Shown one piece after another: positions 4,701 through 63,540 of a DNA stretch of 64,000 nucleotides. Every line of letters starts with the position of its first letter. Position 1 is the stretch's first letter. Made by a program: the position numbers and the translations under genes. This DNA comes from an uncultured Clostridia bacterium (GTDB lineage Bacteria > Bacillota > Clostridia > TANB77 > CAG-508): assembly GCA_934130355.1 (NCBI GenBank), contig CAKOXV010000005.1:18690-82689 (forward strand), in the 5' to 3' direction. Below the pieces are notes generated by a model. That model was not told the DNA's origin. It saw nothing but the letters and a program-made list of their open reading frames with translations, and made no database searches.

Positions 4701-6809
4701 TTTGACGCATCTGCAAATCATGATGGAAGTATAATGGGGTATTATACAGATGCTGGTGATGGTTTATATGAATTAACATTTATAAGTGATTCAATAATTA
4801 AAGCCAATACAAATGCTTCATATTTATTTCATAATTTAACAGAATTGGAAAAAATCTCATTTGCTAACTTTAGAACTTCAGATGTAACTATTATGACTTC
4901 AATGTTTCAAGGCTGTAGCAAGTTGAAAAATTTGAGTTTAGGTAATTTTGATACAAGTAATGTTACAAGAATGACACTTATGTTTTATAAGTGTAATAAT
5001 CTAGTAAGTTTAGATGTAAGCAGCTTTAATACAAGCAAAGTAGTAGATATGTATGCTATGTTTAATCAATGCAGTAACCTAACAAGCGTAGATGTAAGTA
5101 AATTTGATACAAGTCAAGTAACAAGTATGGGATTTATGTTTGGAGGTTGCCTTAAATTAGAAAGTTTAAATCTAAGTAGTTTTGATACAAGTAAAGTAAC
5201 AAGTATGACCGTTATGTTTAATCAATGCAGTAGTTTAACAAGCTTAGATTTAAAAGGATTTGATACAAGCAAAGTTACTACTATGAGTTATATGTTTGCA
5301 TATTGCACTAAATTATCCACAATTTATGTTGATGACTTTTCTACATCAGCAGTAACTGATGATGCAAATATGTTTAATGCATGTACAAGCCTAGTAGGAG
5401 GAAATGGAACGAGATACAATGCTAGTTATAAGACTAAAACTTATGCAAGGATAGATAAAGCAGGAGAACCAGGATATTTTACCCAAAAGTATAATGAAAC
5501 AGTAATGATGAAAACATCTGGAAGTGATAATAATTCAAATTACTTAAGAGGAGGAATTAAAAAAGTAAATATAGAAAAAATCAAATTTGTAAAAGGAAAG
5601 ACTCAGCCAACTGGAATAATATCAAGTTTTGATGCTTCTGAAAATCAAGATGGAAGTATAATAGGATATTATACAGATATAAATGGAAATGGCTTATATG
5701 AATTAACATTTATGAGTAATTCGACAATAAAAGCAAATGCAGATTCATCATATTTATTTATGTATTTGACAAATTTAAAAGAAATAACATTTGATAACTT
5801 TAAAACAACAGGCACAACTAATATGCTGTATATGTTTTTCTATTGTAGTAATTTAGCAAGTATAGATTTGAGTAATTTTGATACGAGTGAAGTTACAAAT
5901 ATGCAATATTTATTTGGATATTGTAGTAGTTTAGAAAGTTTAGACATAAGTAGTTTTGATACAAGTAAAGTTACAAATATGGGAACAATGTTCCTAGAAT
6001 GTTCAAAATTATCTAAAATTTATGTTGATCAATTTGCAACATCAGCAGTAACCAATTCAGGTGGAATGTTCTATGGATGTACAAATCTAGTAGGAGGAAA
6101 TGGAACAACTTATGATGCTAGTAAAAATGATGCAACTTATGCAAGAATAGACAAGTCTGGAACACCAGGATACTTTACTTTAAAAAACAAGAGTGAAGTA
6201 ATGATGATGGCAACAGAATTAAGCGGAAGTAGTTCTAACTATTTAAGAGGAACAATTATAAGAGGACAAATAGAAAAAGTAAAATTCGTTGAAGGAACAA
6301 CACCACCAACAGGAACAACATCAAGTTTTGATGCTTCAGCAAATCAAGATGGAAGTATAATGGGATATTATACAGATACAGATGGAAATGGTTTGTATGA
6401 ATTGACATTTATGAGTGATGCGATAATTATTTCAAATACAAATGCATCAGGATTATTTATGAATTTTACAAATTTAAAAGAAATAACATTTGATAATTTT
6501 AAAACAACAGGCACAACTAATATGCTGTATATGTTTCTTTATTGTAGTAATTTAACAAGTTTGGACTTAAGTAATTTCGATACAAGTAAAGTTACAAATA
6601 TGCAAACAATGTTTGCAGGATGCTCAAAGCTATCTACGATTTATGTTAAAAACTTTTCAACACTTGAAGTTACTTCTTCTGGAGATATGTTTGGAGGATG
6701 TACAAGCCTAGTAGGAGGAAATGGAACAACATTCAACTCTAGTTATACAGATGCAACATATGCAAGAATAGACAAGTCTGGAACACCAGGATATTTTACA
6801 CAAAAATAA
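1791..6809 (+). CDS. Giant surface protein of 1672 aa. N-terminal signal/anchor and conserved beta-rich domain of about 190 aa, followed by four modules of 26-residue DUF285/TIGR02167 leucine-rich repeats.
   Basis: Repeating '(L)xxLDxSxFDTSxVTxMxxMFxxCxxL' units. Each module ends 'GGNGTxYN..TYARIDKxGxPGYFT'. Signal-like N-terminus 'MRKVKLSRQTLLLFLLLLLIVLMGIGYSAINS'. Confidence 0.85.
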   Translation: MRKVKLSRQTLLLFLLLLLIVLMGIGYSAINSVTGEIDGKVIADIQSGVFIASVEYSNDVNADLDASTIKYYKGTYLQNTVKLSDTDANSSITYKVTIYNNSDDFTTFSGVEYDEEFYDNSDIIFETSGLEKGKTINKKESKDIYITFKYKDGVIPENKILNANLRFKFDWITRMMVANRNDSSATYLRGTITKDKIETINFARGSTISDETISSFDASEKENQTIIGYYTDMDGNGLYELTFMSEGIIAANVDASYLFGDMTNLKQILFDNFSTKGVTNMFKMFGACSELTSLDLTSFNTNQVISMSNMFDSCYKLISIYVKPYNEENNVGWVTSAVTESNQMFNASTNLIGGNGTEFDENNIDVNYARIDTVETPGYLTDISDKPVIMMKGNNASVTPNYLRGTIAKNRIRTISFTRGTTPPEEIIESFDASEKEDKSIMGYYTDAGNSGYNLIFMSESVIAPNVDASYLFCNLNVMNQITFDNFNTNQVIDMSHMFEKCENLKNFDVSKFKTNQLTNMSYMFYYCRGITDLDLSNFNTSQVTNMSYMLYACDGLINFDVSKFNTSNVTDMSHMFELCNKLNNIDVSNFDTSKVTDMNFMFEACKAFTSLDVSNFDTSQVTDMGAMFAWCTNLTNLDLNNFDTSQVTNMRSMFEHCDALTDLNISKFDTSKVTDMSYMFDFCDSLTSLDLSNFDTSQVNDMKVMFRCNSLTNLNISSFDTSNVTDMNSMFNDCSSLTSIDVSNFNTSNVIDMTSMFWGCSSLTSIDVSNFNTSNVTRMIQMFQECTSLTSIDLSNFDTSKVIDMRSLFNGCSKITSINISSFDTSQVTNMWGMFSYCNNLTSIDISSFNTSRVTEMGWMFSKSAKLSQIYVSEFSTLKVTSSDHMFYDCTSLVGGNGTKYNSRYQDKTYARIDKLGEPGYFTELTKVSRMMAGNNSATNYLRGTIAKNEIKTIKFIRGTTQPEGTVSSFDASANHDGSIMGYYTDAGDGLYELTFISDSIIKANTNASYLFHNLTELEKISFANFRTSDVTIMTSMFQGCSKLKNLSLGNFDTSNVTRMTLMFYKCNNLVSLDVSSFNTSKVVDMYAMFNQCSNLTSVDVSKFDTSQVTSMGFMFGGCLKLESLNLSSFDTSKVTSMTVMFNQCSSLTSLDLKGFDTSKVTTMSYMFAYCTKLSTIYVDDFSTSAVTDDANMFNACTSLVGGNGTRYNASYKTKTYARIDKAGEPGYFTQKYNETVMMKTSGSDNNSNYLRGGIKKVNIEKIKFVKGKTQPTGIISSFDASENQDGSIIGYYTDINGNGLYELTFMSNSTIKANADSSYLFMYLTNLKEITFDNFKTTGTTNMLYMFFYCSNLASIDLSNFDTSEVTNMQYLFGYCSSLESLDISSFDTSKVTNMGTMFLECSKLSKIYVDQFATSAVTNSGGMFYGCTNLVGGNGTTYDASKNDATYARIDKSGTPGYFTLKNKSEVMMMATELSGSSSNYLRGTIIRGQIEKVKFVEGTTPPTGTTSSFDASANQDGSIMGYYTDTDGNGLYELTFMSDAIIISNTNASGLFMNFTNLKEITFDNFKTTGTTNMLYMFLYCSNLTSLDLSNFDTSKVTNMQTMFAGCSKLSTIYVKNFSTLEVTSSGDMFGGCTSLVGGNGTTFNSSYTDATYARIDKSGTPGYFTQK

Positions 6810-6817
6810 AACAGAGA

Positions 6818-6860
6818 ATAGAAGTAGAAAACCAAAAAATTCTACTTCTATTTTTTTATC
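6818..6860 (+). terminator. Rho-independent terminator after the first giant repeat gene.
   Basis: Stem GAAGTAGAA...TTCTACTTC followed by a T-run. Confidence 0.7.
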
Positions 6861-6914
6861 CATAATAATACAAAATACTTTTAAATTAACACAAATAAAA
6901 ATTTAATAAACTAC

Positions 6915-6950
6915 TTGAAAAATATGCAAAGAAAATATACAATGTATAAT
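6915..6950 (+). promoter_or_regulatory. Sigma-A-like promoter (TTGAAA-17-TACAAT/TATAAT) upstream of the second giant gene. Homologous to the pth promoter segment at 10575-10610.
   Basis: -35/-10 hexamers. Segment 'tacttgaaaaata(t/c)gcaaa' is duplicated at 10571. Confidence 0.45.
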
Positions 6951-7049
6951 AATAAAATACAAAAATTAGCAATAATTTTTTACAAAATCTTATCCTAAAA
7001 TAGCGAAACATATTGAAGATTAAATATAAAAAATAAACGAGGAAAGGAG

Positions 7050-7091
7050 ATGGTGATATATCTAAAATTAGATATATCATACAAAAGATAG
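7050..7091 (+). other. 13-codon upstream ORF (MVIYLKLDISYKR) with a strong SD. Its stop codon lies 1 nt before the start of the gene at 7093. It contains the 24-bp palindrome GATATATCTAA-AA-TTAGATATATC (7055-7078).
   Basis: GAGGAAAGGAG then ATG at 7050. TAG at 7089-7091, then 'tagtATG'. Perfect 11-bp inverted-repeat arms. Confidence 0.35.
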
Positions 7092-7092
7092 T

Positions 7093-10000
7093 ATGAGAAA
7101 AGTGAAGCTGAGACAAAAAACTTTAATACTATTCCTTTTGCTATTGGTAATAGTATTAATGGGAATAGGATATTCTGCAATAAATTCAATAACAGGCGAA
7201 ATTAAAGGAATTGTAATCGCAAACATACAAGATGGTGTATTTATAGCAAATGTAGAATATGTGAGTAGTGTTAATGCAGATGTAGACAATTCAGCAATTG
7301 AGTATTATAAAGGCACATATTTGCGAAACAAAGCAAAACTATCAGATACAGATGCAAGTTCTTCAATAACATATAAAATAACATTTTATGATAATTCTAA
7401 TAGTTCTTATACATTTGTAGGAGTAGAATATGATGAAGAATTCTATGACAATGTAGACATAATATTTGAAACAAGTAGATTTGACATAGGGCAAGACATA
7501 AACAAGAATGAAACAAAAGAAATGTATATAACATTTAAATACAAAGATGGAGTTCTTCCAGAAAACAAAACTCTAAATGCGAATTTGAACTTCAAATTTG
7601 AAAAAATAAATAGAATGATGGTAGCAGGCAACAATTCTAGTGGAAACTATTTAAGAGGAACAATTGCAAAAGACCAAATAGAAACAATAAGTTTTACAAA
7701 AGGAACTACACCGCCAACAGGAGTAACATCAAGTTTTGATGCTTCTGAAAGTCAAGACAATGGCATAATTGGATATTACACAGATACAGATGGTAATGGA
7801 CTATATGAATTAACATTTATGAGTGAAGGAACAATTTTAGCTAATACAAATAGTTCATATTTGTTTTTCAAGTTGACAAGTTTAAATCAGATAACATTTG
7901 ACAATTTTGATGTAAGTGCTACAAGTAAAGTAACAGACATGAAATATATGTTTTATAGTTGCGGAGGTTTAACTAGTTTGGATGTAAGTAAATTTGATAC
8001 AAGCCAAGTAACAAGTATGAGTTATATGTTTTCTTCTTGCGGTGGTTTAACGAGTTTAGATTTAAGCAATTTTAATACAAGCAAAGTTACAGATGTGGAG
8101 TATATGTTTTATAATTGTAGTAATTTAACAAAGTTAGATGTAAGCAAATTTGACACAAGTCAAGTAACATATATGAGACATATGTTTAATGGTTGCAGTG
8201 GTTTAACCAGTTTAGATGTAAACAACTTTGATACAAGTAAAGTAACAAACATGAGTTATATGTTTTCTTCTTGCAGTGGTTTAACTGATTTAGATGTAAG
8301 CAACTTTAATACAAGTCAAGTAACAGCTATGAATAGTATGTTTGAATCTTGTAGTGGTTTAACCAATTTAGATTTAAGTAACTTTGATACAGGTAAAGTA
8401 ACAGAAATGTATAGTATGTTTGAATCTTGTAGTGGTTTAACCAGTTTAGATGTAAGCAACTTTAATACAAGCAAAGTAACAAATATGAGTGCTATGTTTT
8501 CTTCTTGCAATAGTTTAGCCAGCCTAGATGTAAGCAACTTTGGTACAAGTCAGGTAAGATTTATGAGTACTATGTTTTATGGTTGCAGTAGTTTAACCAA
8601 TTTAGATGTAAGCAACTTTGATACAAGTCAGGTAATGTATATGAGTCATATGTTTACTCAATGCAGTGGCTTAACCAATTTAGATGTAAGCAACTTTAAC
8701 ACAAGTCAAGTAAGAGAGATACAGGATATGTTTAGAGATTGTTTTGGTCTAACCAGTTTAGATTTAAGTAACTTTAACACAGCAGAAGTAACAAATATGA
8801 GTGGTATGTTTGCGAATTGTGTCGGTCTAATCAATTTAGACGTAAGCAGTTTTAACACAAGTAAAGTAACAAGTATGGGTGGTATGTTTGAGGATTGCAT
8901 AAATTTAACAAGTTTAGATTTAAACAGTTTTGACACAGGTCAAGTGAAATATATGAGTGACATGTTTGGGTATTGTAGAAAATTAACAACCATTTATGCT
9001 AAAGATTTTTCAACTTCAAATGTCAGAAATTCCTCAAGTATGTTTAACAAATGTACAAGCCTAGTAGGTGGAAATGGAACGACGTACAATTCTAGTTATA
9101 CAGATGCAACATATGCAAGAATAGACATAGAAGGAACACCAGGATATTTTACGAGACTAACAAGAATGATGGTTGCAAGCTACAGTTTTGATGGAAACCA
9201 TTTAAGAGGAACAATTGCAAAAGATAAAATAGAAAAAATAGTTTTTACCAAAGGCTCTACAGCTCCAACAGGAGCAATATCAAGTTTTGATGCTTCTGAA
9301 AATGAAGATAAAAGTATAATAGGATACTATACAGATACAGACGGAAATGATTTATATGAATTAACATTTATGAGTGAAAGCACAATTTTGGCTAATACAA
9401 ATAGTTCGTATTTGTTTTACGGTTTAAAGAGTTTAAAACAGATAACATTTGACAATTTTAATGTAAGTAATGTAAGCAAGGTAACAGATATGATAAATAT
9501 GTTTACTGGTTGTATTAGTTTAACCAGTTTAGATGTAAGTAAATTTGATACTAGCCAAGTAACAAGTATGAGTTCTATGTTTTATGGGTGTAGTGGATTA
9601 ACGAGTTTGGATGTAAGCAAGTTTGATACAAGTCAAGTAACAAGTATGAGTTCTATGTTTTATGGGTGTAGTGGATTAACGAGTTTGGATGTGAGCAAGT
9701 TTGATACAAGTCAAGTAACAAGTATGAGTTCTATGTTTTATAATTGCAGTGGTTTGACGAGTCTAGATGTAAGCAGCTTTGATACAAGTCAAGTAACATT
9801 AATGGATAGTATGTTTTCTAATTGCAGTAGCTTAACAAGTTTAGATGTAAGCAAATTTGACACAAGTAAAGTAACAGATATGAGTTATATGTTTTTTTAT
9901 TGCAGTAAATTAACAAATTTAGATGTAAGCAAATTTGACACAAGCAAAGTGACGGATATGATGCGTATGTTTTATAATTGCAGTGGTTTGACGAGTTTAG

Positions 10001-10479
10001 ATGTAAGCAAATTTGATACAAGCCAAGTGACAGATATGAGTCATATGTTTTATAATTGCAAAGGTTTAACCGGTTTAGATGTGAGCAATTTTGACACAAG
10101 CAAAGTAACAGGTATGAGGGATATGTTTTCTGGTTGCAAAGGTTTAACCAGTTTAGATGTAAGTAACTTTGATACTAGCCAAGTAACAAATATGATGCAG
10201 ATGTTTACTAATTGCAGTGGCTTAACGAGTTTAGATGTAAGCAAATTTGATACAAGTAAAGTAACAAATATGATGAATATGTTTTTTGGTTGCAGTAAAT
10301 TAACAACAATTTATGTTAAAGATTTTTCAACTTCAAATGTTACAGAGTCTTCGAACATGTTCTATGGTTGCACAAGCCTAGTAGGAGGAAATGGAACTAC
10401 GTACAATTCTAGTTATAAAGATGCAACATATGCAAGAATAGACACAGCTGGAACACCAGGATATTTTACACAAAAATAA
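7093..10479 (+). CDS. Second giant surface protein (1128 aa), paralogue of 1791..6809. The N-terminal domain of about 190 aa is conserved; two modules of 26-residue DUF285 repeats follow.
   Basis: About 85% nt identity to the paralogue over the N-terminus. Same repeat consensus and same C-terminal 'GGNGTTYNSSY.DATYARID..GTPGYFTQK'. Confidence 0.85.
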   Translation: MRKVKLRQKTLILFLLLLVIVLMGIGYSAINSITGEIKGIVIANIQDGVFIANVEYVSSVNADVDNSAIEYYKGTYLRNKAKLSDTDASSSITYKITFYDNSNSSYTFVGVEYDEEFYDNVDIIFETSRFDIGQDINKNETKEMYITFKYKDGVLPENKTLNANLNFKFEKINRMMVAGNNSSGNYLRGTIAKDQIETISFTKGTTPPTGVTSSFDASESQDNGIIGYYTDTDGNGLYELTFMSEGTILANTNSSYLFFKLTSLNQITFDNFDVSATSKVTDMKYMFYSCGGLTSLDVSKFDTSQVTSMSYMFSSCGGLTSLDLSNFNTSKVTDVEYMFYNCSNLTKLDVSKFDTSQVTYMRHMFNGCSGLTSLDVNNFDTSKVTNMSYMFSSCSGLTDLDVSNFNTSQVTAMNSMFESCSGLTNLDLSNFDTGKVTEMYSMFESCSGLTSLDVSNFNTSKVTNMSAMFSSCNSLASLDVSNFGTSQVRFMSTMFYGCSSLTNLDVSNFDTSQVMYMSHMFTQCSGLTNLDVSNFNTSQVREIQDMFRDCFGLTSLDLSNFNTAEVTNMSGMFANCVGLINLDVSSFNTSKVTSMGGMFEDCINLTSLDLNSFDTGQVKYMSDMFGYCRKLTTIYAKDFSTSNVRNSSSMFNKCTSLVGGNGTTYNSSYTDATYARIDIEGTPGYFTRLTRMMVASYSFDGNHLRGTIAKDKIEKIVFTKGSTAPTGAISSFDASENEDKSIIGYYTDTDGNDLYELTFMSESTILANTNSSYLFYGLKSLKQITFDNFNVSNVSKVTDMINMFTGCISLTSLDVSKFDTSQVTSMSSMFYGCSGLTSLDVSKFDTSQVTSMSSMFYGCSGLTSLDVSKFDTSQVTSMSSMFYNCSGLTSLDVSSFDTSQVTLMDSMFSNCSSLTSLDVSKFDTSKVTDMSYMFFYCSKLTNLDVSKFDTSKVTDMMRMFYNCSGLTSLDVSKFDTSQVTDMSHMFYNCKGLTGLDVSNFDTSKVTGMRDMFSGCKGLTSLDVSNFDTSQVTNMMQMFTNCSGLTSLDVSKFDTSKVTNMMNMFFGCSKLTTIYVKDFSTSNVTESSNMFYGCTSLVGGNGTTYNSSYKDATYARIDTAGTPGYFTQK
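9532..9765 (+). repeat. Three near-identical tandem 78-bp (26-codon) repeats inside the second giant gene.
   Basis: 'DVSKFDTSQVTSMSSMFYGCSGLTSL' is encoded three times with 1-3 nt differences. Confidence 0.85.
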
Positions 10480-12397: not shown

Positions 12398-12534
12398 CGC
12401 TAAAATGGGGACGGTCCTTTTCTTCGCGAATTTGGGGACAGACCTTTAAAATTATTTGAAAATATTATATAAACAAATTAAAAGGTCTGTCCCCAAATTC
12501 GCGAAGAAAAGGACCGTCCCCATTTTAGCTAGCG
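12398..12534. repeat. GC-rich perfect palindrome with arms of about 49 bp (arm sequence 'gctaaaatggggacggtccttttcttcgcgaatttggggacagaccttt') and a loop of about 33 nt. Member of a genomic repeat family.
   Basis: Left arm 12399-12447 is the exact reverse complement of right arm 12481-12529. Contains GGGGACGGTCC / GGGGACAGACC / TTCGCGAA sub-palindromes. A related copy lies at 63491-63540. Confidence 0.85.
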
Positions 12535-12546
12535 AGAGGTGAAAAA

Positions 12547-13905
12547 ATGAAAGTAGGATTTATATCACTAGGATGTAGTAAAAATTTAATAGACACAGAA
12601 ATAGCAATAGGGCATTTCAAAAACAACAAATATGAAATAGAAAATAATCCAGAAAAAGCAGAAATAATAGTAATAAACACATGTGGATTTATAGAATCAG
12701 CAAAAGAAGAAGCAATAAACACAATACTAGAAATGGCTGAGTATAAAAAGAAAAAATGCAAATATCTAATAGTAATGGGATGTTTAGTACAACGTTATTA
12801 TGACGAACTAATAAAAGAACTTCCAGAAGTAGACTTATTCATAAAAATTGATGAATATAACAATATGTGGCAAAAAATAGAAAAACTAATTAAGAAAGAC
12901 GAAGTAGAGATAAGCACAACACATACAAGCAAAAAAATAACAGAAATAAAGCCACTTCCAATGCCAACAGCAAATGAATTTTATGAAAGAATTATAACAA
13001 CAGGAAAAAACTTTGCATATTTAAAAATAGGAGAAGGATGTAGCAATAGATGTACATATTGTGCAATTCCATACATAAGAGGTCCATTTGTAAGTAGACC
13101 ACAAGAAGAAATAATAGAAGAAGCAAAAACACTTGCAAAAAAAGGAATAAAAGAATTAATAATAATTGCACAAGACACAACAAAATATGGAGTAGACATT
13201 TATGGAGAGCCAAGACTAGCAAAACTATTAGAAGAATTAAGCAAAATTCCAGAAATAAAATGGATTAGATTTTTATATTCTTATCCAGAAGGAATAACAG
13301 ATGAACTAATTCAAACTGTTAAAAACAATGAAAAAATCTGCAAATATTTTGACATACCAATTCAACACATTTCAGATAAAATCCTAAAAAAGATGAATAG
13401 AAGAACAAACAAAAAACAAATAGAAAACTTAATAAATAAATTAAGAAAAGAAATACCTGATGTAACATTAAGAACAAGTTTGATAGTAGGATTTCCAGGA
13501 GAAACTGTTGAAGATTTTGAAGAATTAGAAGAATTTGTACAACAAGCCAAATTTGACAAATTAGGTGCATTCATGTATTCAAAAGAAGAAGGAACACCAG
13601 CTGCTAAGATGACAGGACAAATACATGCAAACACTAAAAAGGCAAGATACAATAAAATAATGGCAATTCAGCAAAAAACTTCAAACGAAAAATTACAAGA
13701 AAAAATAGGAAAAGAATTTGAAGTTTTAGTTGAAGACAAAACTTTTGATGGAAAATATTTAATAGGAAGAACTAAACAAGATGTTCCAGACATTGATGGA
13801 CTTATATACATAAAAAATGAGACAACAGAGCAATTAATAGACAAATTTGTAAAAGCAAAAGTCATAGAAGTAAAAGATTATGACTTAATAGGAGAGATTT
13901 GTTAA
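12547..13905 (+). CDS. rimO: Ribosomal protein S12 methylthiotransferase RimO (MiaB-family radical SAM with TRAM domain).
   Basis: 'VGFISLGCSKNLIDTE' N-terminal MTTase domain, 'CSNRCTYCAIP' radical-SAM Cys motif, C-terminal TRAM domain. Confidence 0.75.
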   Translation: MKVGFISLGCSKNLIDTEIAIGHFKNNKYEIENNPEKAEIIVINTCGFIESAKEEAINTILEMAEYKKKKCKYLIVMGCLVQRYYDELIKELPEVDLFIKIDEYNNMWQKIEKLIKKDEVEISTTHTSKKITEIKPLPMPTANEFYERIITTGKNFAYLKIGEGCSNRCTYCAIPYIRGPFVSRPQEEIIEEAKTLAKKGIKELIIIAQDTTKYGVDIYGEPRLAKLLEELSKIPEIKWIRFLYSYPEGITDELIQTVKNNEKICKYFDIPIQHISDKILKKMNRRTNKKQIENLINKLRKEIPDVTLRTSLIVGFPGETVEDFEELEEFVQQAKFDKLGAFMYSKEEGTPAAKMTGQIHANTKKARYNKIMAIQQKTSNEKLQEKIGKEFEVLVEDKTFDGKYLIGRTKQDVPDIDGLIYIKNETTEQLIDKFVKAKVIEVKDYDLIGEIC

Positions 13906-33235: not shown

Positions 33236-35344
33236 ATGTTTTATGCAAAGATAACAAAAATAATGCTTTTTCTATTTATAATATTTGGAGTAATAATACT
33301 TTTTGATAATCCAGTTACAGCCCAAAGTAATTACACAGCCAGAACGTGGATTGATAGCCCCAAAAGTGAAGATATATCTTTTGAAAAAATGGTTGTATCT
33401 GGTTGGAAACTAAGTAATGACAAAGATTCTAAACTAAAAATATTAATAGATGACAAAGAACAGAAGATAGAAAACTTAACAACTAGAAGTAGAGCAGATG
33501 TAATAAGTACTATACCGGGATATGGCGGAATAGAACTAAACCCAGAACCAGGATATTCAGCAACAATAGATATCTCAGGAATTAAAAGAGGATATCACAC
33601 ATTAAAAACACAAATAATATCTGCTGAAGGAAAAATATTAACAGAACAAAGTAGAAAAATATACATAGAATCATATAAAGCCAGAACATATATAGACAGT
33701 CCCAAACAAAATGCAAATATAGAAGGAACAAAATTAGTTGTACAAGGATGGATAATGTCTGATGATTTATCTAGAGATGTAAAAATATTTTTAGACGACA
33801 AAGAACAGCAAATTACACAAACAACTACAAGAACTAGACCAGATGTAATAAGTGCTGTACCAGGATATGGTGGAATTAATAAAAATCCGGAACCAGGATA
33901 TTCATCAACAATAGATGTATCAAAAATAAAAAGTGGAAAATATAAATTAAAAGTACAAGTCATATCAAGAAATGGTGAAATATTGACTGAACAAACAAGA
34001 GATATATTTATTGAAAATTATAGAGCAAGAACTTATATAGATTCTCCAAAACAAGAAGCGGTTATAGAAGGGGCAAGTTTGGCTGTACAAGGATGGTATA
34101 TGAGTAGTGAAAAAACTAAAAATTTAAGAATATTAATAGATGGTCAAGAACATGAAATTATTCAAACTACAACAAGACCAAGACCTGATGTAATATCAGC
34201 AGTACCAGGTTATGGAGGTATCGAAACAAATCCAGAACCAGGATATTCAGCAACAATAGATATCTTAAAAATCAAAGATGGAAAACACAATTTAAAAGTA
34301 CAAATTTTATCAAGTGATAATGAAGTAATGGCAGAAGATGAAAGACAAATAATAGTCCAAAAATATAAAGCAAAAACATATATAGATTATCCCAAAGGAA
34401 ATAGTCAAACAAAAGATACTTTAACAGTATCAGGATGGGTAATGTCAACAGATGCAAATAGAAAAATAAATATTTACTTAAATGGAGAAAAACAAATAAT
34501 AAATAATATTACGACAAGGCCAAGACCTGATGTAATATCAGCTGTTCCAAGTTATGGAGGAATTGATACAAATGCTCAACCAGGATATTCAACAACAATT
34601 GATGTTTCCAACAAAGAGGATGGGAAATATACATTGAAAGTTCAAATCGTTTCAAGCACAGGAGAAGTTTTAACTGAAGATACAAGACAAATCTATATAC
34701 ATATAAATTATGAATTTGGCATAGATGTCTCAACACACAATGGAACAATAGATTGGGGAAAAGTAAAGCAAAGTGGAGTAAAATTTGCAATAATAAGAGC
34801 AGGATTTAGAGGCTATGGAAAAGCTGGAACATTAGTACAAGATGCAAAATTTGTGGAAAATATGAAAGGTGCTATATCTAATGGAATTGATGTTGGAATA
34901 TATTTTTATTCACAAGCAATAAATACTCAAGAAGCTATTGAAGAAGTTGAAATGATATTAAAATTGATAAGAGAAAATGGATTTTCAAAGAGTATTGCAT
35001 TACCAATAATAATAGATACAGAAGAATCATCAGGAAGAGCTGACCAAATATCAATAGATCAGAGAACAAAGGCTGTAAAGGCATTTTGTGACAGGGTAGA
35101 ACAAGCAGGTTATAAATCAATGATATATTCTAATAAATATTGGCTTTCTGCTAAGCTAAATATGAATGAATTGTCTCAATATGATTTTTGGCTAGCACAT
35201 TATACTGGCACAAATGACCCAATAAATAATCCGTCTGATTACAAGGGGAGTTATCAAATTTGGCAATATAGTTCAACAGGTAGAGTTGATGGAATTAATG
35301 GAAATGTGGACTTAAATATTAAATATAAGAAGTATTCTTTCTAA
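33236..35344 (+). CDS. Secreted GH25 muramidase (lysozyme) with five N-terminal GW-containing repeats of about 110 aa each.
   Basis: Signal peptide. Five copies of 'ARTYIDSPK...V.GW.MS...RPDVISAVPGYGG...NPEPGYS.TID'. C-terminal 'FGIDVSTHNGTIDWGKVK...GIDVGIYFYS' GH25 motifs. Confidence 0.8.
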   Translation: MFYAKITKIMLFLFIIFGVIILFDNPVTAQSNYTARTWIDSPKSEDISFEKMVVSGWKLSNDKDSKLKILIDDKEQKIENLTTRSRADVISTIPGYGGIELNPEPGYSATIDISGIKRGYHTLKTQIISAEGKILTEQSRKIYIESYKARTYIDSPKQNANIEGTKLVVQGWIMSDDLSRDVKIFLDDKEQQITQTTTRTRPDVISAVPGYGGINKNPEPGYSSTIDVSKIKSGKYKLKVQVISRNGEILTEQTRDIFIENYRARTYIDSPKQEAVIEGASLAVQGWYMSSEKTKNLRILIDGQEHEIIQTTTRPRPDVISAVPGYGGIETNPEPGYSATIDILKIKDGKHNLKVQILSSDNEVMAEDERQIIVQKYKAKTYIDYPKGNSQTKDTLTVSGWVMSTDANRKINIYLNGEKQIINNITTRPRPDVISAVPSYGGIDTNAQPGYSTTIDVSNKEDGKYTLKVQIVSSTGEVLTEDTRQIYIHINYEFGIDVSTHNGTIDWGKVKQSGVKFAIIRAGFRGYGKAGTLVQDAKFVENMKGAISNGIDVGIYFYSQAINTQEAIEEVEMILKLIRENGFSKSIALPIIIDTEESSGRADQISIDQRTKAVKAFCDRVEQAGYKSMIYSNKYWLSAKLNMNELSQYDFWLAHYTGTNDPINNPSDYKGSYQIWQYSSTGRVDGINGNVDLNIKYKKYSF

Positions 35345-35376: not shown

Positions 35377-35400
35377 CTATTAAAATTAATTCATATATTT

Positions 35401-35476
35401 TGCTGTATATATATTAAAAATAATGGAAAGTTTAGCTTGTCCAAAATTTGGAATGTTTTTTAATATATATACAGCA
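35401..35476. repeat. Perfect 20-bp-stem hairpin (TGCTGTATATATATTAAAAA / TTTTTAATATATATACAGCA) enclosing a 36-nt loop with the conserved motif 'GAAAGTTTAGCTTGTCCAAAATTTGGAATG'. Probably a deletion derivative of the element family at 59753-60088.
   Basis: The motif plus 'TTTTTAATATATATAC' is identical to 60010-60055. The left arm interior 'TATATATTAAA(AA)TAATGGA' matches 59786-59808. Confidence 0.75.
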
Positions 35477-35546
35477 AATATATTGAATTTATTTAACTTT
35501 AATGATAAAATTCAAAAAGAATAAATATAAAATAGGAGGAATAGAC

Positions 35547-37647: not shown

Positions 37648-39876
37648 ATGAAAAAAACAACAAAAATATTATTTTTTATTTTAATATTAATATCTTTCAT
37701 AATGTTAATAAAAGTTCCTAGAAGTGTTGCAGCAACTGCAAAAACAAAGATATGGTTCGACTATCCAAAACAAGGAACAGAATATAAAAAAGAATTAAAT
37801 ATACATGGATGGGTTATGTCAGAATTAGCAGAAAAAACAGTAAAAATATATATTGATGATAAAGACATAACATCACAAATAAAATTATATAATAGACCAG
37901 ATGTAACCAAAACTGTAAAAGGATTTGGAACGGCAGAACAAAATCCACTTGCAGGATTTGATGGAACAATAGATATATCTGGATATAAAGACGGAAGTCA
38001 TAAAGTAACTGTAAAAGTATTAGAAAATGCAACACAAAATGTAATTCAAGAAAACACAAGCATAATACAAATTAAAAAATATCAAACAAAAATATTTTTT
38101 GATTATCCAAAACAATCTGAAACAGTATTTAAAACAATAAATGTGCATGGATGGGTAATGTCAGAAGCAGAAAATAAAACAGTTCAAATATTTTTAGATG
38201 ATACAGATATAACAAAACAAATAAAAAGATATGCAAGACCAGATGTAATAAAAGCAGTAAAAAATTATGGTACAGAAAAACAAAATCCACAATCAGGATT
38301 TGACGGAAATGTAGATATTTCTAAACTTACAGTTGGAAAACATGCTGTAAAAATGAAAGTAATAAATAATGATACATCAGAGACAATAGCAGAAGAAACA
38401 AGAAAAATTAATGTAAGAGATTATTATACAAAAATATGGTTTGATTATCCAAAACAAAACAATGAATATAAAGCTTCACTAAATGTACATGGATGGATAA
38501 TGTCAGAACAAGCAGACAAAATTGTAAAATTCTATATTGATAATAATGATGTAACAGAACAAATAAAAAGATATGCAAGACCAGATGTAACAGGAACTGT
38601 AAAAGGATTCGGAACAGCAGAACAAAATACACTTGCAGGATTTGACGGAACAATAGATATGTCAAAATATAAAGATGGTAAACATAGTGTAACAATAAAA
38701 GTATTAGAAAAAACAACAGAAAGAGAAATTTCTCAAAGCACTACTACATTTACAATACATAAATATGCAACAAAATTACATGTAGATTATCCACATCAAC
38801 AACAAAACAGTAAAAATGTTTTAAAAATACATGGATGGGTTATGTCAGAACAAGCAGATAAAAGTATGAAATTTTATTTGAATAATGAAGATATAACATC
38901 ACAAATAAAATTATATGATAGACCAGATGTAATAAAAGCAATTAAAAATTATGGAACAGCAGCACAAAATCCAACAGCAGGATATGATGGACAAATTGAT
39001 GTAGAAAAATTAACTGCTGGAAATTATACTTTAAAAATACAAGTAATATCAAATGTTACAAAAGAAGTATTAGAAACAGCACGAGTTCAAATAACATTAA
39101 ACAAAATACTTTTAGAAAAAGGTGTTTATGGAAAATCAGGTCTAGCAATAAAAGGTGATTATAGAGGAAGTGACCTTATATATTACAAAATAGGTGACGG
39201 AGAAAATGTATTATTTACAACATTTTCAGTACATGGATATGAAGATGAATGGGATCAAGATGGTGCAGAATTAACAAAAATAGCAGAACAATTTAAAAAT
39301 AAATTAATACAATTACAAGATAGAGAATTAGACAAAAAATGGACAATCTATATTTTCCCAATGGTTAATCCAGATGGACAAAAATATGGAACAACACATA
39401 ATGGACCAGGAAGAACAACATTATATAGTGCTGCACCAGGTCACAAGGGTGTAGATATGAACCGTTGTTGGAGTTCAAATTTTGAAGAAAAAACAAATAA
39501 TAGAAATTATACAGGACCAGAACCATTTTTAGCTTATGAAGCAAGATATTTAAGAGACTTTTTACTAAAAAATAAATCAAAAACAGGTCAAACAATACTT
39601 GTAGATTTACATGGATGGTATAATCAATCAATAGGTGATGAAGCTGTAGGAAAATATTATAGAGAACAATTAGGAATTACAAAACCACATAAAAGCACTT
39701 ATGGAACTGGATATTTAGTTGGATGGGCAAAAGATAATTTAGGAAACAAAAATTATTCTGCTAAATCAGAACTAATAGAATTAGTACCAGTAGAAAACCA
39801 AGAAGAAGTTGCTTCAAGAAGATATGGAGAAAAATACATAACAGCAACAATAAATATGTTAAAAGGAATTCTATAA
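37648..39876 (+). CDS. Secreted M14-family zinc carboxypeptidase-like cell-wall peptidase with four N-terminal repeats of the GW-containing type also found in the GH25 enzyme.
   Basis: Signal peptide. Four copies of 'KIWFDYPKQ...HGWVMSE...RPDV.K.VK.(F/Y)GT..QNP..G(F/Y)DG.ID'. C-terminus 'HGYEDEWD...PMVNPDG...GVDMNRCW' (M14 Zn-ligand and 'NRxW' motifs). Confidence 0.7.
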   Translation: MKKTTKILFFILILISFIMLIKVPRSVAATAKTKIWFDYPKQGTEYKKELNIHGWVMSELAEKTVKIYIDDKDITSQIKLYNRPDVTKTVKGFGTAEQNPLAGFDGTIDISGYKDGSHKVTVKVLENATQNVIQENTSIIQIKKYQTKIFFDYPKQSETVFKTINVHGWVMSEAENKTVQIFLDDTDITKQIKRYARPDVIKAVKNYGTEKQNPQSGFDGNVDISKLTVGKHAVKMKVINNDTSETIAEETRKINVRDYYTKIWFDYPKQNNEYKASLNVHGWIMSEQADKIVKFYIDNNDVTEQIKRYARPDVTGTVKGFGTAEQNTLAGFDGTIDMSKYKDGKHSVTIKVLEKTTEREISQSTTTFTIHKYATKLHVDYPHQQQNSKNVLKIHGWVMSEQADKSMKFYLNNEDITSQIKLYDRPDVIKAIKNYGTAAQNPTAGYDGQIDVEKLTAGNYTLKIQVISNVTKEVLETARVQITLNKILLEKGVYGKSGLAIKGDYRGSDLIYYKIGDGENVLFTTFSVHGYEDEWDQDGAELTKIAEQFKNKLIQLQDRELDKKWTIYIFPMVNPDGQKYGTTHNGPGRTTLYSAAPGHKGVDMNRCWSSNFEEKTNNRNYTGPEPFLAYEARYLRDFLLKNKSKTGQTILVDLHGWYNQSIGDEAVGKYYREQLGITKPHKSTYGTGYLVGWAKDNLGNKNYSAKSELIELVPVENQEEVASRRYGEKYITATINMLKGIL

Positions 39877-47999: not shown

Positions 48000-48135
48000 T
48001 GTTACAATATTGTTACAGGAATGTTAAATTTTTATTACAAATTGAAAAAGTATTGACAAAATAGAAAAAAAGTTAGATACTTAAGGCAAAGTTAAAAAAA
48101 TACGAAAGTGTAAAAATATTAGGAGGTTAAGAAAA

Positions 48136-48645: not shown

Positions 48646-49134
48646 ATGATTACACCATTAGATATAGAAAATAAAAAATTTAGTAAACAAATGATGAATG
48701 GATATAATGTCGATGAAGTAGATGAGTTCTTAGATGAAATAATGGAAGATTATGAAGCAAATTATAAAGAACTTATAGCATTGCGTCCAAAAGTAGAAGA
48801 ATTGAATGGTTCATTGGAACATTATAAAAATATAGAAACAACATTACAAAATACATTAGTAATGGCTCAAACTACAGCAGAAGAAGTAAAAAATGTTGCA
48901 AAACAACAAGCAGAACAAATAGTAAGTGAAGCTCAAAGAAGAGCAGATGATATAGTAAGACAATCACAAGAAAGTTCAGTTAAAGCTGTAGCAGAACTTG
49001 AACAACAGATTAGAATGAAAGAACAACAATTTAATGATGTGAAAAAACAATTTGATATATATAAAGCAAAAATGGAATCATTGTTAATTTCACAATCTGA
49101 ACTAATTAAAGAAATAAACAAAGAGGATGAATAA
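48646..49134 (+). CDS. divIVA: DivIVA-domain cell-division protein.
   Basis: 'ITPLDIENKKFSKQMMNGYNVDEVDEFLDEI' DivIVA N-terminus plus coiled coil. Confidence 0.85.
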   Translation: MITPLDIENKKFSKQMMNGYNVDEVDEFLDEIMEDYEANYKELIALRPKVEELNGSLEHYKNIETTLQNTLVMAQTTAEEVKNVAKQQAEQIVSEAQRRADDIVRQSQESSVKAVAELEQQIRMKEQQFNDVKKQFDIYKAKMESLLISQSELIKEINKEDE

Positions 49135-49172
49135 TCCTCTTTTTCTTTTTAATACTCAAAGAGCCACACTTT

Positions 49173-49521
49173 CTTGGTACTTGCAGGCATGACTCTCAGG
49201 TATATAGTGCACCAAAAGTACCAAAAATGCATTACAGATTTTGGATAAGCCAATCTTCCCACAGAAGTTCTAATTTAATAAAAAAAGCCGCTTTCACTTA
49301 GCTAAAAATTAATATTAACTATGAAGTAAAGCAAAGACCCCCGACGAAGACCCCAGCTATGTTTTTGCTACGGAATAGTTAATATTAATTTTTATCGTGA
49401 ACATCCCTCTTTTTATTAAATAAGAACTTCTAGTGTTAAGATTAGATACACAAAATCTTTCATTTATTTTCGGTACTTTTGGTGCACTATATACCAGGGA
49501 CTTATGTCTGCAAGTACCAAG
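49173..49521 (+). repeat. Approximately 350-bp structured element (copy A). Long imperfect outer stem (38 bp with an internal bubble), nested inner helices, and a conserved core of about 110 nt (49303-49410) that itself carries a 19-bp inverted repeat.
   Basis: Outer arms 49173-49222 / 49472-49521. Core is 'aaaaattaatattaactatgaagtaaagcaaagaccc..gaccccagctatgtttttgctacggaatagttaatattaattttt'. A homologous copy in the opposite orientation lies at 59753-60088. Confidence 0.8.
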
Positions 49522-49650
49522 AAAATATGGCTTAGGTTGTGTTACAATATTACAGAATTATTAAAACTATATTACAATTTCATTAAAACACTTGACAATA
49601 GACAAAAAAAGAATAAAATATTAGTATAAAAGAAAGGCTGAAAAAGCAAT

Positions 49651-59634: not shown

Positions 59635-59752
59635 TCCTTAAATTTATTTGGCAATAAATTAACATTTTTTATTATATACTTATATAATGCAAATTTCAAG
59701 GCTTTTGTTACAAAAAATATGGAACTAATAATAGTTTTAATACACACCTCGA

Positions 59753-60088
59753 CACAAATGGCTTCATGGCACCACTGGAACTAGGTATATATATTAAATA
59801 ATGGATAATTTTGTGCATCTAAACTTGAGGATAGAAAATCTTAAAGTACATACACGAGGAATGCTCACGTCAAAAATTAATATATTACTATTCCATGGCA
59901 AAAACATAGCTGGGGTCATCCCCATAGTGGGTCTTTGCCTTATTTCATAGTAATATATTAATTTTTGGACTAAGAGAGAGAGGCTCGTGTTGTACTTTTA
60001 GATTTTATATGAAAGTTTAGCTTGTCCAAAATTTGGAATGTTTTTAATATATATACCTGGTTACAGTGGTGCCATGAAACCATTTGTG
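59753..60088 (-). repeat. Approximately 340-bp structured element (copy B, opposite orientation). 40-bp terminal inverted repeats, nested helices, and the same core of about 110 nt as copy A.
   Basis: Arms 'cacaaatggcttcatggcaccactggaactaggtatatat' / reverse complement at 60049-60088. The core's reverse complement 'aaaaattaatatattactatgaaataaggcaaagaccc..gaccccagctatgtttttgccatggaatagtaatatattaatttttg' is about 85% identical to 49303-49410. Confidence 0.8.
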
Positions 60089-60256
60089 TCAAGGTATGCA
60101 TTAGAACTATTAATTAGCAACATAAATTTAAAATAAAAAAATATTAAAAAATTTGTAAAAAAAGAGGGAAAAAAATTAGAATAGGAGAATAATATACATA
60201 GTACATAAGAATACACGTATATGTACAAATTTAAAATAACAGTGGAGGTGCACACA

Positions 60257-62208: not shown

Positions 62209-62881
62209 AATCTATTCAAGAAAAAGGTTTATAATCAAAAGAAAAAGGAAGATAATCAAAATTACACTAACACTAGTCATAGCTGTAATTATATATAAAA
62301 TAACAATTGGTTTCGTTGGTCCTGTTTTTGAAACATTATGTGAAGAAAAAGTAAGAATAATATCAACAATAATTTCAAATCAGGAGTCAACGAAAATCAT
62401 GAATAAATATCAATATGAAGAATTATATACAATTGAAAAAGATGAGGTCGGAGATGTAACAATTATAAAATCAAATGTAGTTCCTATAAATAATATGATT
62501 TCTGATCTAACTGAAGCAATTCAAAATAGATTTAATGAAGTTGAAAATACTGAAATTAAAATCACTTTGGGAAATTTATTAGGAGGGTATTATTTCTCAG
62601 GAATTGGACCTTCTATACCTATTAAAGTACGAAGCTCTGGAACAATTGATACAGAAATAAAAAGTGAGTTTATAGCACAAGGCATAAATCAAACATTACA
62701 TAGAGTCTATGTGAATTTTGAGTGTTATTTTAAGGTTATAACACCTGTTAAAAATTTTGAGAAAAAGGTTACTAATCAGGTTATAATTGCAGAACATGTT
62801 ATTGTTGGAAATATTCCAGATGCCTACTATAATCTTGAGGGAGTGAATAGCACTGGGGATATGTTGAATTCGATTAAATAA
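62201..62881 (+). CDS. yunB: Sporulation protein YunB family.
   Basis: N-terminal TM and conserved YunB core ('ITLGNLLGGYYFSGIGPSIPIK...'). Confidence 0.65.
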   Translation: MSKIYSRKRFIIKRKRKIIKITLTLVIAVIIYKITIGFVGPVFETLCEEKVRIISTIISNQESTKIMNKYQYEELYTIEKDEVGDVTIIKSNVVPINNMISDLTEAIQNRFNEVENTEIKITLGNLLGGYYFSGIGPSIPIKVRSSGTIDTEIKSEFIAQGINQTLHRVYVNFECYFKVITPVKNFEKKVTNQVIIAEHVIVGNIPDAYYNLEGVNSTGDMLNSIK

Positions 62882-62886
62882 TCTAA

Positions 62887-62920
62887 AAGAGAAGTACAAT
62901 GTGCACTTCTCTTTTTAAAC
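62887..62920 (+). terminator. Rho-independent terminator.
   Basis: Stem GAGAAGT...ACTTCTC followed by TTTTT. Confidence 0.6.
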
Positions 62921-63003
62921 TATTAAACAACTTCAATATACCCTCTTGTATAAAAAAAAATACTTTGATATAATTTAAACATAATAGCAAAGGAGGAGAT
63001 AAA

Positions 63004-63483
63004 ATGGAAGAACAATGCAAGTGCGGATGTAGCGGAAAAGACGAATTTTTAGAAGGTTTATGTGAAAAATATAAGCCAATAAAAGACAATTTAATACAAA
63101 TGTTAAACGAAGTACAAGAACATTATGGATATGTACCAATGAAAGCTCAAAAAGTTTTATCAGAATATTTAAATTTACCAATGGCAGAGATATATGGTGT
63201 AGTAACATTTTATTCAAGATTTACACTAAAACCAAAAGGAAAATACAACATAGCAGTATGTTTAGGAACAGCATGTTATGTAAAAGGTTCACAAAAAATA
63301 ATGGACAGATTAAAAGATAGATTAAAAATAGAACCAGGAGAAACAACGCCAGACGGAAAATTTTCAATAGAAGAAACCAGATGTGTTGGAGCATGCGGAT
63401 TAGCTCCTGTATTTACAGTAAATGGAAAAGTATATGGAAAAGCAACAGTGCAAATGTTAGACCAAGTCTTAGATGAGCTATAA
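63004..63483 (+). CDS. NuoE-family [2Fe-2S] subunit (24-kDa type) of an NADH-dependent hydrogenase or dehydrogenase.
   Basis: 'CLGTACYVKGS...CVGACGLAPV' thioredoxin-like 2Fe-2S motif. Confidence 0.8.
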   Translation: MEEQCKCGCSGKDEFLEGLCEKYKPIKDNLIQMLNEVQEHYGYVPMKAQKVLSEYLNLPMAEIYGVVTFYSRFTLKPKGKYNIAVCLGTACYVKGSQKIMDRLKDRLKIEPGETTPDGKFSIEETRCVGACGLAPVFTVNGKVYGKATVQMLDQVLDEL

Positions 63484-63490
63484 ATGTAAA

Positions 63491-63540
63491 AAAAAGGACC
63501 GTCCCCAAATTCGCGAAAAAAAGGACCGTCCCCAAATTAA
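63491..63540. repeat. Two tandem copies of the GC-rich unit 'GGACCGTCCCCAAATT(CGCGAA)', equivalent to half of the 12398-12534 palindrome.
   Basis: Units at 63496-63517 and 63523-63538. Identical to the right arm of the 12.4-kb palindrome. Confidence 0.8.

Follow-up and report, generated by a model that had tools for sequence, protein, structure and literature searches.

What are the two long hairpins that stand just upstream of rsmD and murC in this uncultured Clostridia bacterium, leaders that regulate these genes or mobile DNA lodged beside them? The window, that is, the whole 64,000-nt stretch analysed here, is AT-rich clostridial DNA in which 48 of 50 long ORFs lie on the + strand. A first-pass annotation made from the letters alone had pointed to two look-alike structured copies, and they are real: copies A and B have a core in common, an exact 20-mer (GACCCCAGCTATGTTTTTGC, at 49349-49368 on the + strand and 59898-59917 on the - strand, with a chance expectation of 0), nested inverted repeats and folding z-scores of about -20 each. 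Their extent had been slightly underestimated, but the hairpins themselves are where they were said to be. The parts to which we refer below are the following.

49120-49142, + strand: intrinsic terminator of divIVA, given for context and outside the element; copy A starts directly after its T-run.
49146-49541, + strand: full copy A segment, missing from the orthologous divIVA-rsmD spacer of the relative L170.
49161-49533, + strand: rod-like hairpin of copy A (MFE -165.2 kcal/mol, z -19.6).
49263-49431, + strand: inner segment of copy A between its 25-nt middle arms (49263-49287/49407-49431, 92% complementary), inverted in another sample.
49303-49394, + strand: core unit of copy A, made of P1, internal loop, P2 and apical loop (DNA fold z -8.0).
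49303-49322/49375-49394, + strand: P1 stem of copy A, a perfect 20-bp helix.
49330-49369, + strand: conserved module of copy A, with pairing statistics over 25 copies.
49330-49338/49361-49369, + strand: P2 helix of copy A, in which AGCAAAGAC pairs with GTTTTTGCT and includes a G.T wobble; it closes a 22-nt apical loop whose 3' portion, GACCCCAGCTAT, is 49349-49360.
59724-60118, - strand: rod-like hairpin of copy B, between the divergent murC and spoVG (MFE -187.5 kcal/mol, z -20.8).
59871-59967, - strand: core unit of copy B, with a perfect 21-bp P1 (59871-59891/59947-59967).
59939-59931/59905-59897, - strand: P2 helix of copy B, in which GGCAAAGAC pairs with GTTTTTGCC; loop at 59930-59906.

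Copy A is placed after the divIVA terminator and before the rsmD promoter. Its outer arms of 82 nt (49162-49243/49451-49532) are 85% complementary, while copy B has outer arms of 70 nt (59729-59798/60043-60112) that are 90% complementary and middle arms of 20 nt (59831-59850/59991-60010). The outermost arms of the two copies are non-homologous, each being self-complementary, and a 16-nt insertion in copy A is symmetric, present in both arms. When the predicted pairs of A are projected onto B, 25 pairs are changed on both sides and still complementary, and 12 of these 25 are also partners in B's own fold (49237-49457).

Two more members bring the total for the window to three copies and one derivative.

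23094-23200, - strand: copy 3, degenerate, 107 nt, between era and yqzL/recO; loop GAAGACCCAGAATATGTTTT.
35383-35494, no strand assigned: tip-less deletion derivative of a copy-B-like element, retaining both ends and an inverted repeat.

The nhmmer match of copy 3 is weak (E 0.13), and it is backed by the same stem, internal-loop and loop layout and by an inverted repeat; its sequence is identical across six samples. The derivative, which had been suspected near 35401-35476, is borne out by two blocks in which the reverse complement of 35395-35482 matches copy B (60056-60011, 46/46; 59811-59785, 25/27), about 200 nt including the core and its conserved tip being gone. The first-pass annotation had also proposed searching within and across genomes for more copies, and had held that finding none would speak against it; about 35 were found beyond the window in other uncultured Clostridia. 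Thirteen lie in six species-representative MAGs of uncultured Clostridia from animal and human guts (20-mer scan, one genome per species) and about 18 in gut metagenome contigs (17-mer scan), and an HMM built from 21 cores recovers diverged copies that exact patterns missed, namely copy 3, L125 600-668 and L185 13035-13103, the last with the loop variant GACTCCAGCTAT. The lineage of the window is dense in copies: the closest relative, L185, carries two copies in 20 kb, and the HMM search of nine other relatives, 180 kb in all, gave none. The hairpins of the family range from about 85 to 400 nt, and in most other genomes they typically measure 85-130 nt and consist of an AT-rich stem, often of 30-36 perfect pairs, and the tip. 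A 14-mer scan of IMG/VR returned 89 matches, all of them chance or protein-coding, phage and plasmid collections searched by BLASTN with copy A gave no match, and a literature search by sequence and topic brought up no relevant description of the element. About 13 soil-metagenome matches bearing AAGACCCCAGCTATGTTTTT (L104, L105, L110, L119, L123, L126, L132, L139, L143, L149, L153, L158, L160) were set aside as probably unrelated: there the motif sits inside a GACCCC...GGGGTC hairpin, in non-coding DNA that is GC-rich and conserved, and a stretch resembling a promoter, TTGCGACTTTGAGCC...TATAGAATAGCTCAC, likewise conserved, comes after it; Rfam gave no match.

Related genomes differ by insertion or loss of the element as DNA. 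Comparison of orthologous intergenic regions, another check suggested at the outset, revealed presence/absence polymorphism at three loci. The divIVA-rsmD spacer has 516 nt in the window and 123 nt in L170 (RsmD 83% identical), where ...GTCCTCTTTTT (the terminator, ...CCTCTTTTT) is joined directly to TGTTACAATATTACAG and the window has about 395 nt between them. The murC-spoVG spacer has about 630 nt in the window as against 286-360 nt in relatives without the element, four of which (L171, L172, L176, L177) are empty at this site. After yunB it is the window that is empty (62881-63004), and L185 has a copy directly after the yunB terminator with closely matching flanks; this filled/empty pair falls in an A/T run, so that a target duplication is unreadable there. 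Relative to the window, L185 has an additional insertion of about 215 nt (12625-12840) directly after the yunB stop. Other palindromic elements occupy the divIVA-rsmD and murC-spoVG spots in L168, L173, L174 and L178, which makes these two spacers insertion hot spots. A general rule of insertion after terminator T-runs did not hold, being true for copy A and the L185 copy, with the terminator merely close for L013.

The position of both copies upstream of a gene had suggested either a large cis-regulatory leader or an insertion that delivers an outward-reading promoter. The promoters decide against both.

49592-49619, + strand: native rsmD promoter, downstream of copy A (context), TTGACA-16-TAAAAT, 11/12 matches to consensus.
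59671-59699, - strand: native murC promoter, between copy B and murC (context), TTGAAA-17-TATAAT, 11/12 matches to consensus.

The rsmD promoter is conserved in L167, L168 and L170, all without the element, and the murC promoter in all relatives, whether the element is present or absent; inside copies A and B there is no promoter above chance. Since each native promoter stands on the gene side of the element, and relatives with an empty site have it too, neither reading can stand: the element does not serve rsmD or murC as a regulatory leader. Nor does the family show a fixed 5' UTR position before a coherent set of genes: the neighbours of the roughly 35 copies are unrelated housekeeping genes, and orientation relative to tandem neighbours is mixed (15 antisense and 6 sense, two-sided p about 0.08, not significant). 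An antisense bias had appeared among the first 15 copies (11/13) and lost significance once the metagenome copies were added. A role as intrinsic terminator was likewise discarded, the rods having no following T-run. The segment 49541-49615 does start at the insertion boundary, as had been proposed, but it is not a duplication of the sepF upstream region made by the insertion: the two are only about 70% similar, and the segment is native rsmD promoter DNA, also found where relatives have no element. Upstream of sepF (48001-48075) and of rsmD there is a similar module, TGTTACAATATT..TATTACAA..TTGACAA.AGA.AAAAAAG, which may be a common promoter or operator; GTTACAA-like words also end some subfamilies of the element.

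What the family conserves is its tip. Common to all copies are a 9-bp P2 helix and a 21-25-nt loop, of which the 5' part (7-13 nt) is variable and the 3' part (GACCCCAGCTAT) is conserved, relaxing in diverged copies to GACYC-N3-4-(A/C)TAT. The inner five pairs of P2 are invariant (C-G, A-T, G.T, A-T, A-T, that is, AAGAC/GTTTT), and the next four covary, as in GCA/TGC, GTCA/TGAC, ATCA/TGAT, GAAA/TTTC, AGAC/GTCT and GCC/GGC. Across 24 distinct copies, pairing in P2 holds in 99.5% of cells, 29 of them double-changed, and none of 500 shuffles attains the observed covariation; in controls with slid partner columns, only 37-56% of cells pair. Such covariation attests a conserved secondary structure, with which RNA and single-stranded DNA fit equally. 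The G.T (G.U) wobble is invariant and present on the GACCCC strand only. Six copies, four of them from one sheep jejunum MAG and the others L115 and L155, have a permuted layout, in which P2 with its wobble is capped by a loop of 4-5 nt, its strand order being swapped and its pairing kept, the long stem exits from the former loop via a conserved AAAACC/GGTTTT helix, and the strand ...TAGGAAGACCCCAGCTAT is retained as a one-sided bulge. Because these copies swap the order of the P2 strands and yet keep pairing and wobble, it is the single-strand fold that is conserved, and not a linear order or a duplex DNA site. The tip is therefore a conserved fold on one specific strand, even in the permuted layout. 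Three further candidates within the loop did not hold up: a third short helix (CC..GG) and a CAUAG/CUAUG pairing each fit only about half to two thirds of copies, and a small ORF from the loop AUG is unconserved, with lengths of 4, 7 and 37 codons.

The arms behave differently: outside the tip the rod varies among copies and subfamilies, and in every one it is self-complementary. The pairing preserved in spite of changed sequence had been taken as the signature of a functional structured RNA, and this is statistically solid for the tip helix, but the mismatch types of the long arms give no such signature. Outside the invariant wobble we tallied about 31 mismatches of G.T type, 41 of A.C type and 110 transversion mismatches; with no G.U enrichment, the arms behave as DNA palindromes, so that arm pairing alone is no proof of a functional RNA. 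Divergence of the arms between copies is nevertheless far greater than mismatch within a copy, which means that complementarity is actively maintained.

Inner segments invert, and internal deletions occur. In L165 (Logan SRR29133963, with an identical RsmD) the copy A segment between the 25-nt arms is inverted: the contig joins 49263-49356, in reverse complement, to the right flank of the window and ends inside the loop. The new junction has only about 9 identical bases, and it is thus not a k-mer assembly artefact. Relative to copy B, L175 has its arms exchanged or flipped and the orientation of the tip kept, with one outer arm deleted and 35 nt added. In the ERZ1643249 subfamily eight copies have the tip in one orientation relative to the arms and two in the other, inversions are found in L142/L152, and several contigs end inside the tip. 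The window has three occurrences of a unit bounded by GTATATATATTAAA..., and the inverted repeat that flanks it differs among the three; several subfamilies bracket the core unit with (T)AGTCC...GGAC(G). Taken together, these findings suggest repeated insertion at the apex of existing palindromes. At copy B's site, L174 and L178 (murC-spoVG spacer, about 2000-2450) have a different palindromic element of about 300 nt, whose centre of about 150 nt is inverted between the two samples, with TTAATAATATATTGTTTT / AAAACAATATATTATTAA as bounds, and has an inverton-like look.

Our best reading is that these copies form a REP/MITE-like palindromic repeat family, apparently undescribed, with an unusual conserved apical module. 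We put at roughly 0.6 the probability that this is a non-autonomous mobile foldback DNA repeat family of uncultured gut Clostridia in which the tip is a single-strand recognition module. REP hairpins and the end hairpins of IS608 are imperfect palindromes that Y1 HUH enzymes read as single-stranded DNA. In a similar manner, the tip would be a cis-acting site read as a single-stranded hairpin by an enzyme encoded in trans, most plausibly a single-strand DNA transposase of the HUH/Y1 type, as in REP-RAYT and IS200/IS605. The complementarity of the arms would then be kept by hairpin-templated, arm-to-arm correction (template switching in quasi-palindromes is an established mutational mechanism) or by selection for a hairpin intermediate, as has been proposed for REPINs, and not by an RNA function; the successive arm layers may record insertions into the apex of palindromes that were already there, and read-through from neighbouring transcription would yield a long RNA hairpin as a side effect. 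The published account of REPINs describes hairpins that keep their pairing through compensatory changes (Bertels and Rainey, 2011, PMC3116915).

Several observations sit uneasily with this reading. A conserved tip with variable ends is the reverse of what REPINs and classical MITEs show, a loop of 21-25 nt far exceeds in size those of the hairpins that Y1 transposases are known to bind, and the G.U wobble of the conserved strand, like the permuted architecture, is a classic feature of RNA. Target-site features are inconsistent (a 9/10 direct repeat in L107, a possible 6-mer in L151 and none in the other copies), and no cognate mobilising enzyme was found, no homolog of the Y1/RAYT-like gene discussed below being present in any element-bearing locus that we fetched.

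Several known systems come close to the family. With REP/REPIN-RAYT systems it has in common high-copy extragenic hairpin palindromes, compensatory pairing, a conserved stem imperfection and a non-autonomous nature; this clade does have a RAYT-like gene and a bona fide family of REPIN-like repeats, which the window carries too. As to the GTAG or CGTC tag that REPs have at the 5' foot of the hairpin, (G/A)TAG stands before the GTCC... stem in the ERZ subfamily and TTAGTCC in copy B, and L004, L005, L010 and L138 have neither. REPs and REPINs, however, have conserved arms around a variable spacer where the element has a conserved tip and variable arms, and the stems of the element are AT-rich and far longer, with a loop of 21-25 nt and a permuted form. 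The Y1_Tnp gene of L181-L190 encodes 260 aa at a fixed syntenic single-copy site between yunB and a 2Fe-2S gene, and the best NCBIfam match of its product is NF047646 (REP-associated tyrosine transposase) at 62 bits, below the cutoff of 80. It is flanked by inverted GGGACCGGTTC-type repeats and not by the tip-bearing element, which among these ten loci the HMM finds only in L185, a locus without the Y1_Tnp gene; the gene is absent from that site in both the window and L185. Since the RAYT-like gene is flanked by another repeat family, is missing from this site in the window and L185 and has no homolog near any copy, we do not count the element among REPIN-RAYT systems, and we dropped the idea that this gene of the relatives is linked to it.

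Some side observations belong here. The loop GGAAGACCCCAGCTATGT resembles one REP variant, GGAACCGACCCCATATGT. The second palindromic family (TTTGGGGACGGTCC... / GGGACCGGTTC) occurs in the window at 12399-12529, as a REPIN-like hairpin with 59-nt arms, and at 63493-63539, in L168 at about 2235-2390, and in the Y1_Tnp flanks of L181-L190. In L188 (GCA_037069365.1, 14031-15760) a DDE_Tnp_1 insertion sequence lies beside the RAYT-like gene, with the adjacent promoter region duplicated.

The ERIC/IRU, Correia (NEMIS), RUP/BOX and bcr1-type (Bacillus cereus) repeats are intergenic, co-transcribed, long imperfect palindromes of 100-200 nt, with indel size variants, presence/absence polymorphism and a transposase that is borrowed or not known. 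The element resembles them in size class, location in spacers, palindromes, size variants and polymorphism, but has no sequence similarity to them, and those families are defined by conserved termini or a whole-length consensus. None of them is known to have an apical stem-loop that is strictly conserved and covaries, a wobble that never changes, or a permuted form of such a tip. Integron attC sites offer another parallel, in that their sequence varies and a strand-specific single-strand hairpin with specific imperfections is conserved; there, however, the base of the hairpin (R/L boxes) is conserved and here the tip, and attC sites lie in cassette arrays beside an integrase, neither of which applies to the element.

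These copies add a repeat family, apparently one not described before, to the poorly known Clostridia of human and animal guts; extrapolated from the window, its numbers are probably high. Its conservation is inside-out relative to REPINs and MITEs, tip, invariant wobble and permuted version being kept and the ends not. This pattern points to a recognition or functional module, and following it up could reveal a small RNA motif or a system of single-strand DNA mobilisation that is new. The elements also break metagenome assemblies and cause strain-level insertions and inversions beside core cell-division genes, and they teach that pairing in long palindromes should not be read as evidence of RNA function without strand-specific tests.

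A bolder proposal, conceivable if rather doubtful, takes the tip (the AAGAC/GUUUU wobble helix with its loop ...GACCCCAGCUAU) as a new autonomous functional module, selected for its fold on one strand and riding on elements that insert at apices. An undescribed enzyme acting on single-stranded DNA might nick or recognise such a tip, or the tip might be a small RNA that is catalytic or binds a protein. Apex insertion of tip-bearing elements would account both for the permuted layout and for the way in which unrelated arms, each self-complementary, are stacked like the skins of an onion.

The main rival reading, which we consider unlikely, makes the tip an RNA that works through its structure, whether as an sRNA domain or as a small motif for catalysis, processing or protein binding. 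Its transcript would come from the GACCCC strand, the arms would merely hold it up on a stable stem, and the DNA would be repeated because a mobile element carries the RNA gene or module, or because that gene or module has turned into one. The significant covariation of P2 would suit this reading, as would an invariant G.U wobble that reads as an A.C mismatch on the opposite strand, a permuted architecture that keeps the fold and not the order, a loop sequence conserved across subfamilies and the many copies in short operon spacers, where transcription is unavoidable. Permuted small RNAs such as the twister and hammerhead ribozyme types similarly have the same helices and conserved strand in reordered form and many dispersed copies. 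The element, however, has one conserved helix and a one-sided loop, with no recognisable cleavage-site signature, and when the window and short copies were compared with Rfam 15 at gathering and permissive thresholds, no family reached the gathering threshold, the permissive matches being generic AT-rich hairpins (miRNA precursor) on both strands and far below it. The element has no promoter or terminator of its own, its orientation to flanking transcription is inconsistent, and from sample to sample its tip changes orientation relative to arms and flanks. Selected RNA structure would, moreover, not typically have 20-36 perfect AT pairs in its stems or arms that lack G.U enrichment.

The first-pass annotation had offered a MITE-like family as its alternative, and the part of it that concerns mobility and multiplicity stood, borne out by the sites found empty, the additional copy that L185 carries and the deletion derivative; the copies do not, however, take the predicted form, in which they would be numerous and identical, with conserved terminal repeats and target-site duplications. 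That the family is a classical MITE, a deletion derivative of a DDE-transposase insertion sequence moved via terminal inverted repeats, with the centre as a passenger or relic, is improbable. The ERZ1643249 and permuted sheep subfamilies do have similar termini (GTTACA(G/A)TTCA...), L107 is flanked by CTTTATTCCT / CTTATTCCCT, and the tip-less derivative retains both ends. Yet the termini of A and B are unrelated within the same genome, and a target-site duplication of fixed length is convincing in L107 only, which speaks against a classical MITE; the short copies have no common terminal motif or duplications, the centre and not the ends is conserved, under a structural constraint that a relic would not keep, and neither the window nor the fetched loci showed an insertion sequence that would match.

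Very improbable is an invertible DNA switch in which a recombinase flips the strand-specific centre via the nested repeats and so alters neighbouring transcripts or promoters, since the opposite orientations that recommend it (copy A between the window and L165, copy B between the window and L175, two of ten ERZ cores and the other murC-spoVG element between L174 and L178) occur between samples and never within one, and could be by-products of palindrome instability, copy 3 does not vary among its six samples, the would-be recombinase sites differ in sequence from copy to copy, there is no internal promoter or coding end to be switched, and no dedicated invertase or recombinase gene was noticed nearby in a reading of the window's ORFs.

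Elsewhere in the window we noticed repeats of other kinds. Two large ORFs at 1791-10479 (1672 and 1128 aa) contain about 40 diverged tandem repeats of 78 nt (26 aa) and look like surface proteins with leucine-rich repeats. The ORFs 33236-35344 and 37648-39876 contain, at 33395-34698 and 37744-39069, repeats of 342-345 nt in 3-4 copies with 70-80% identity.
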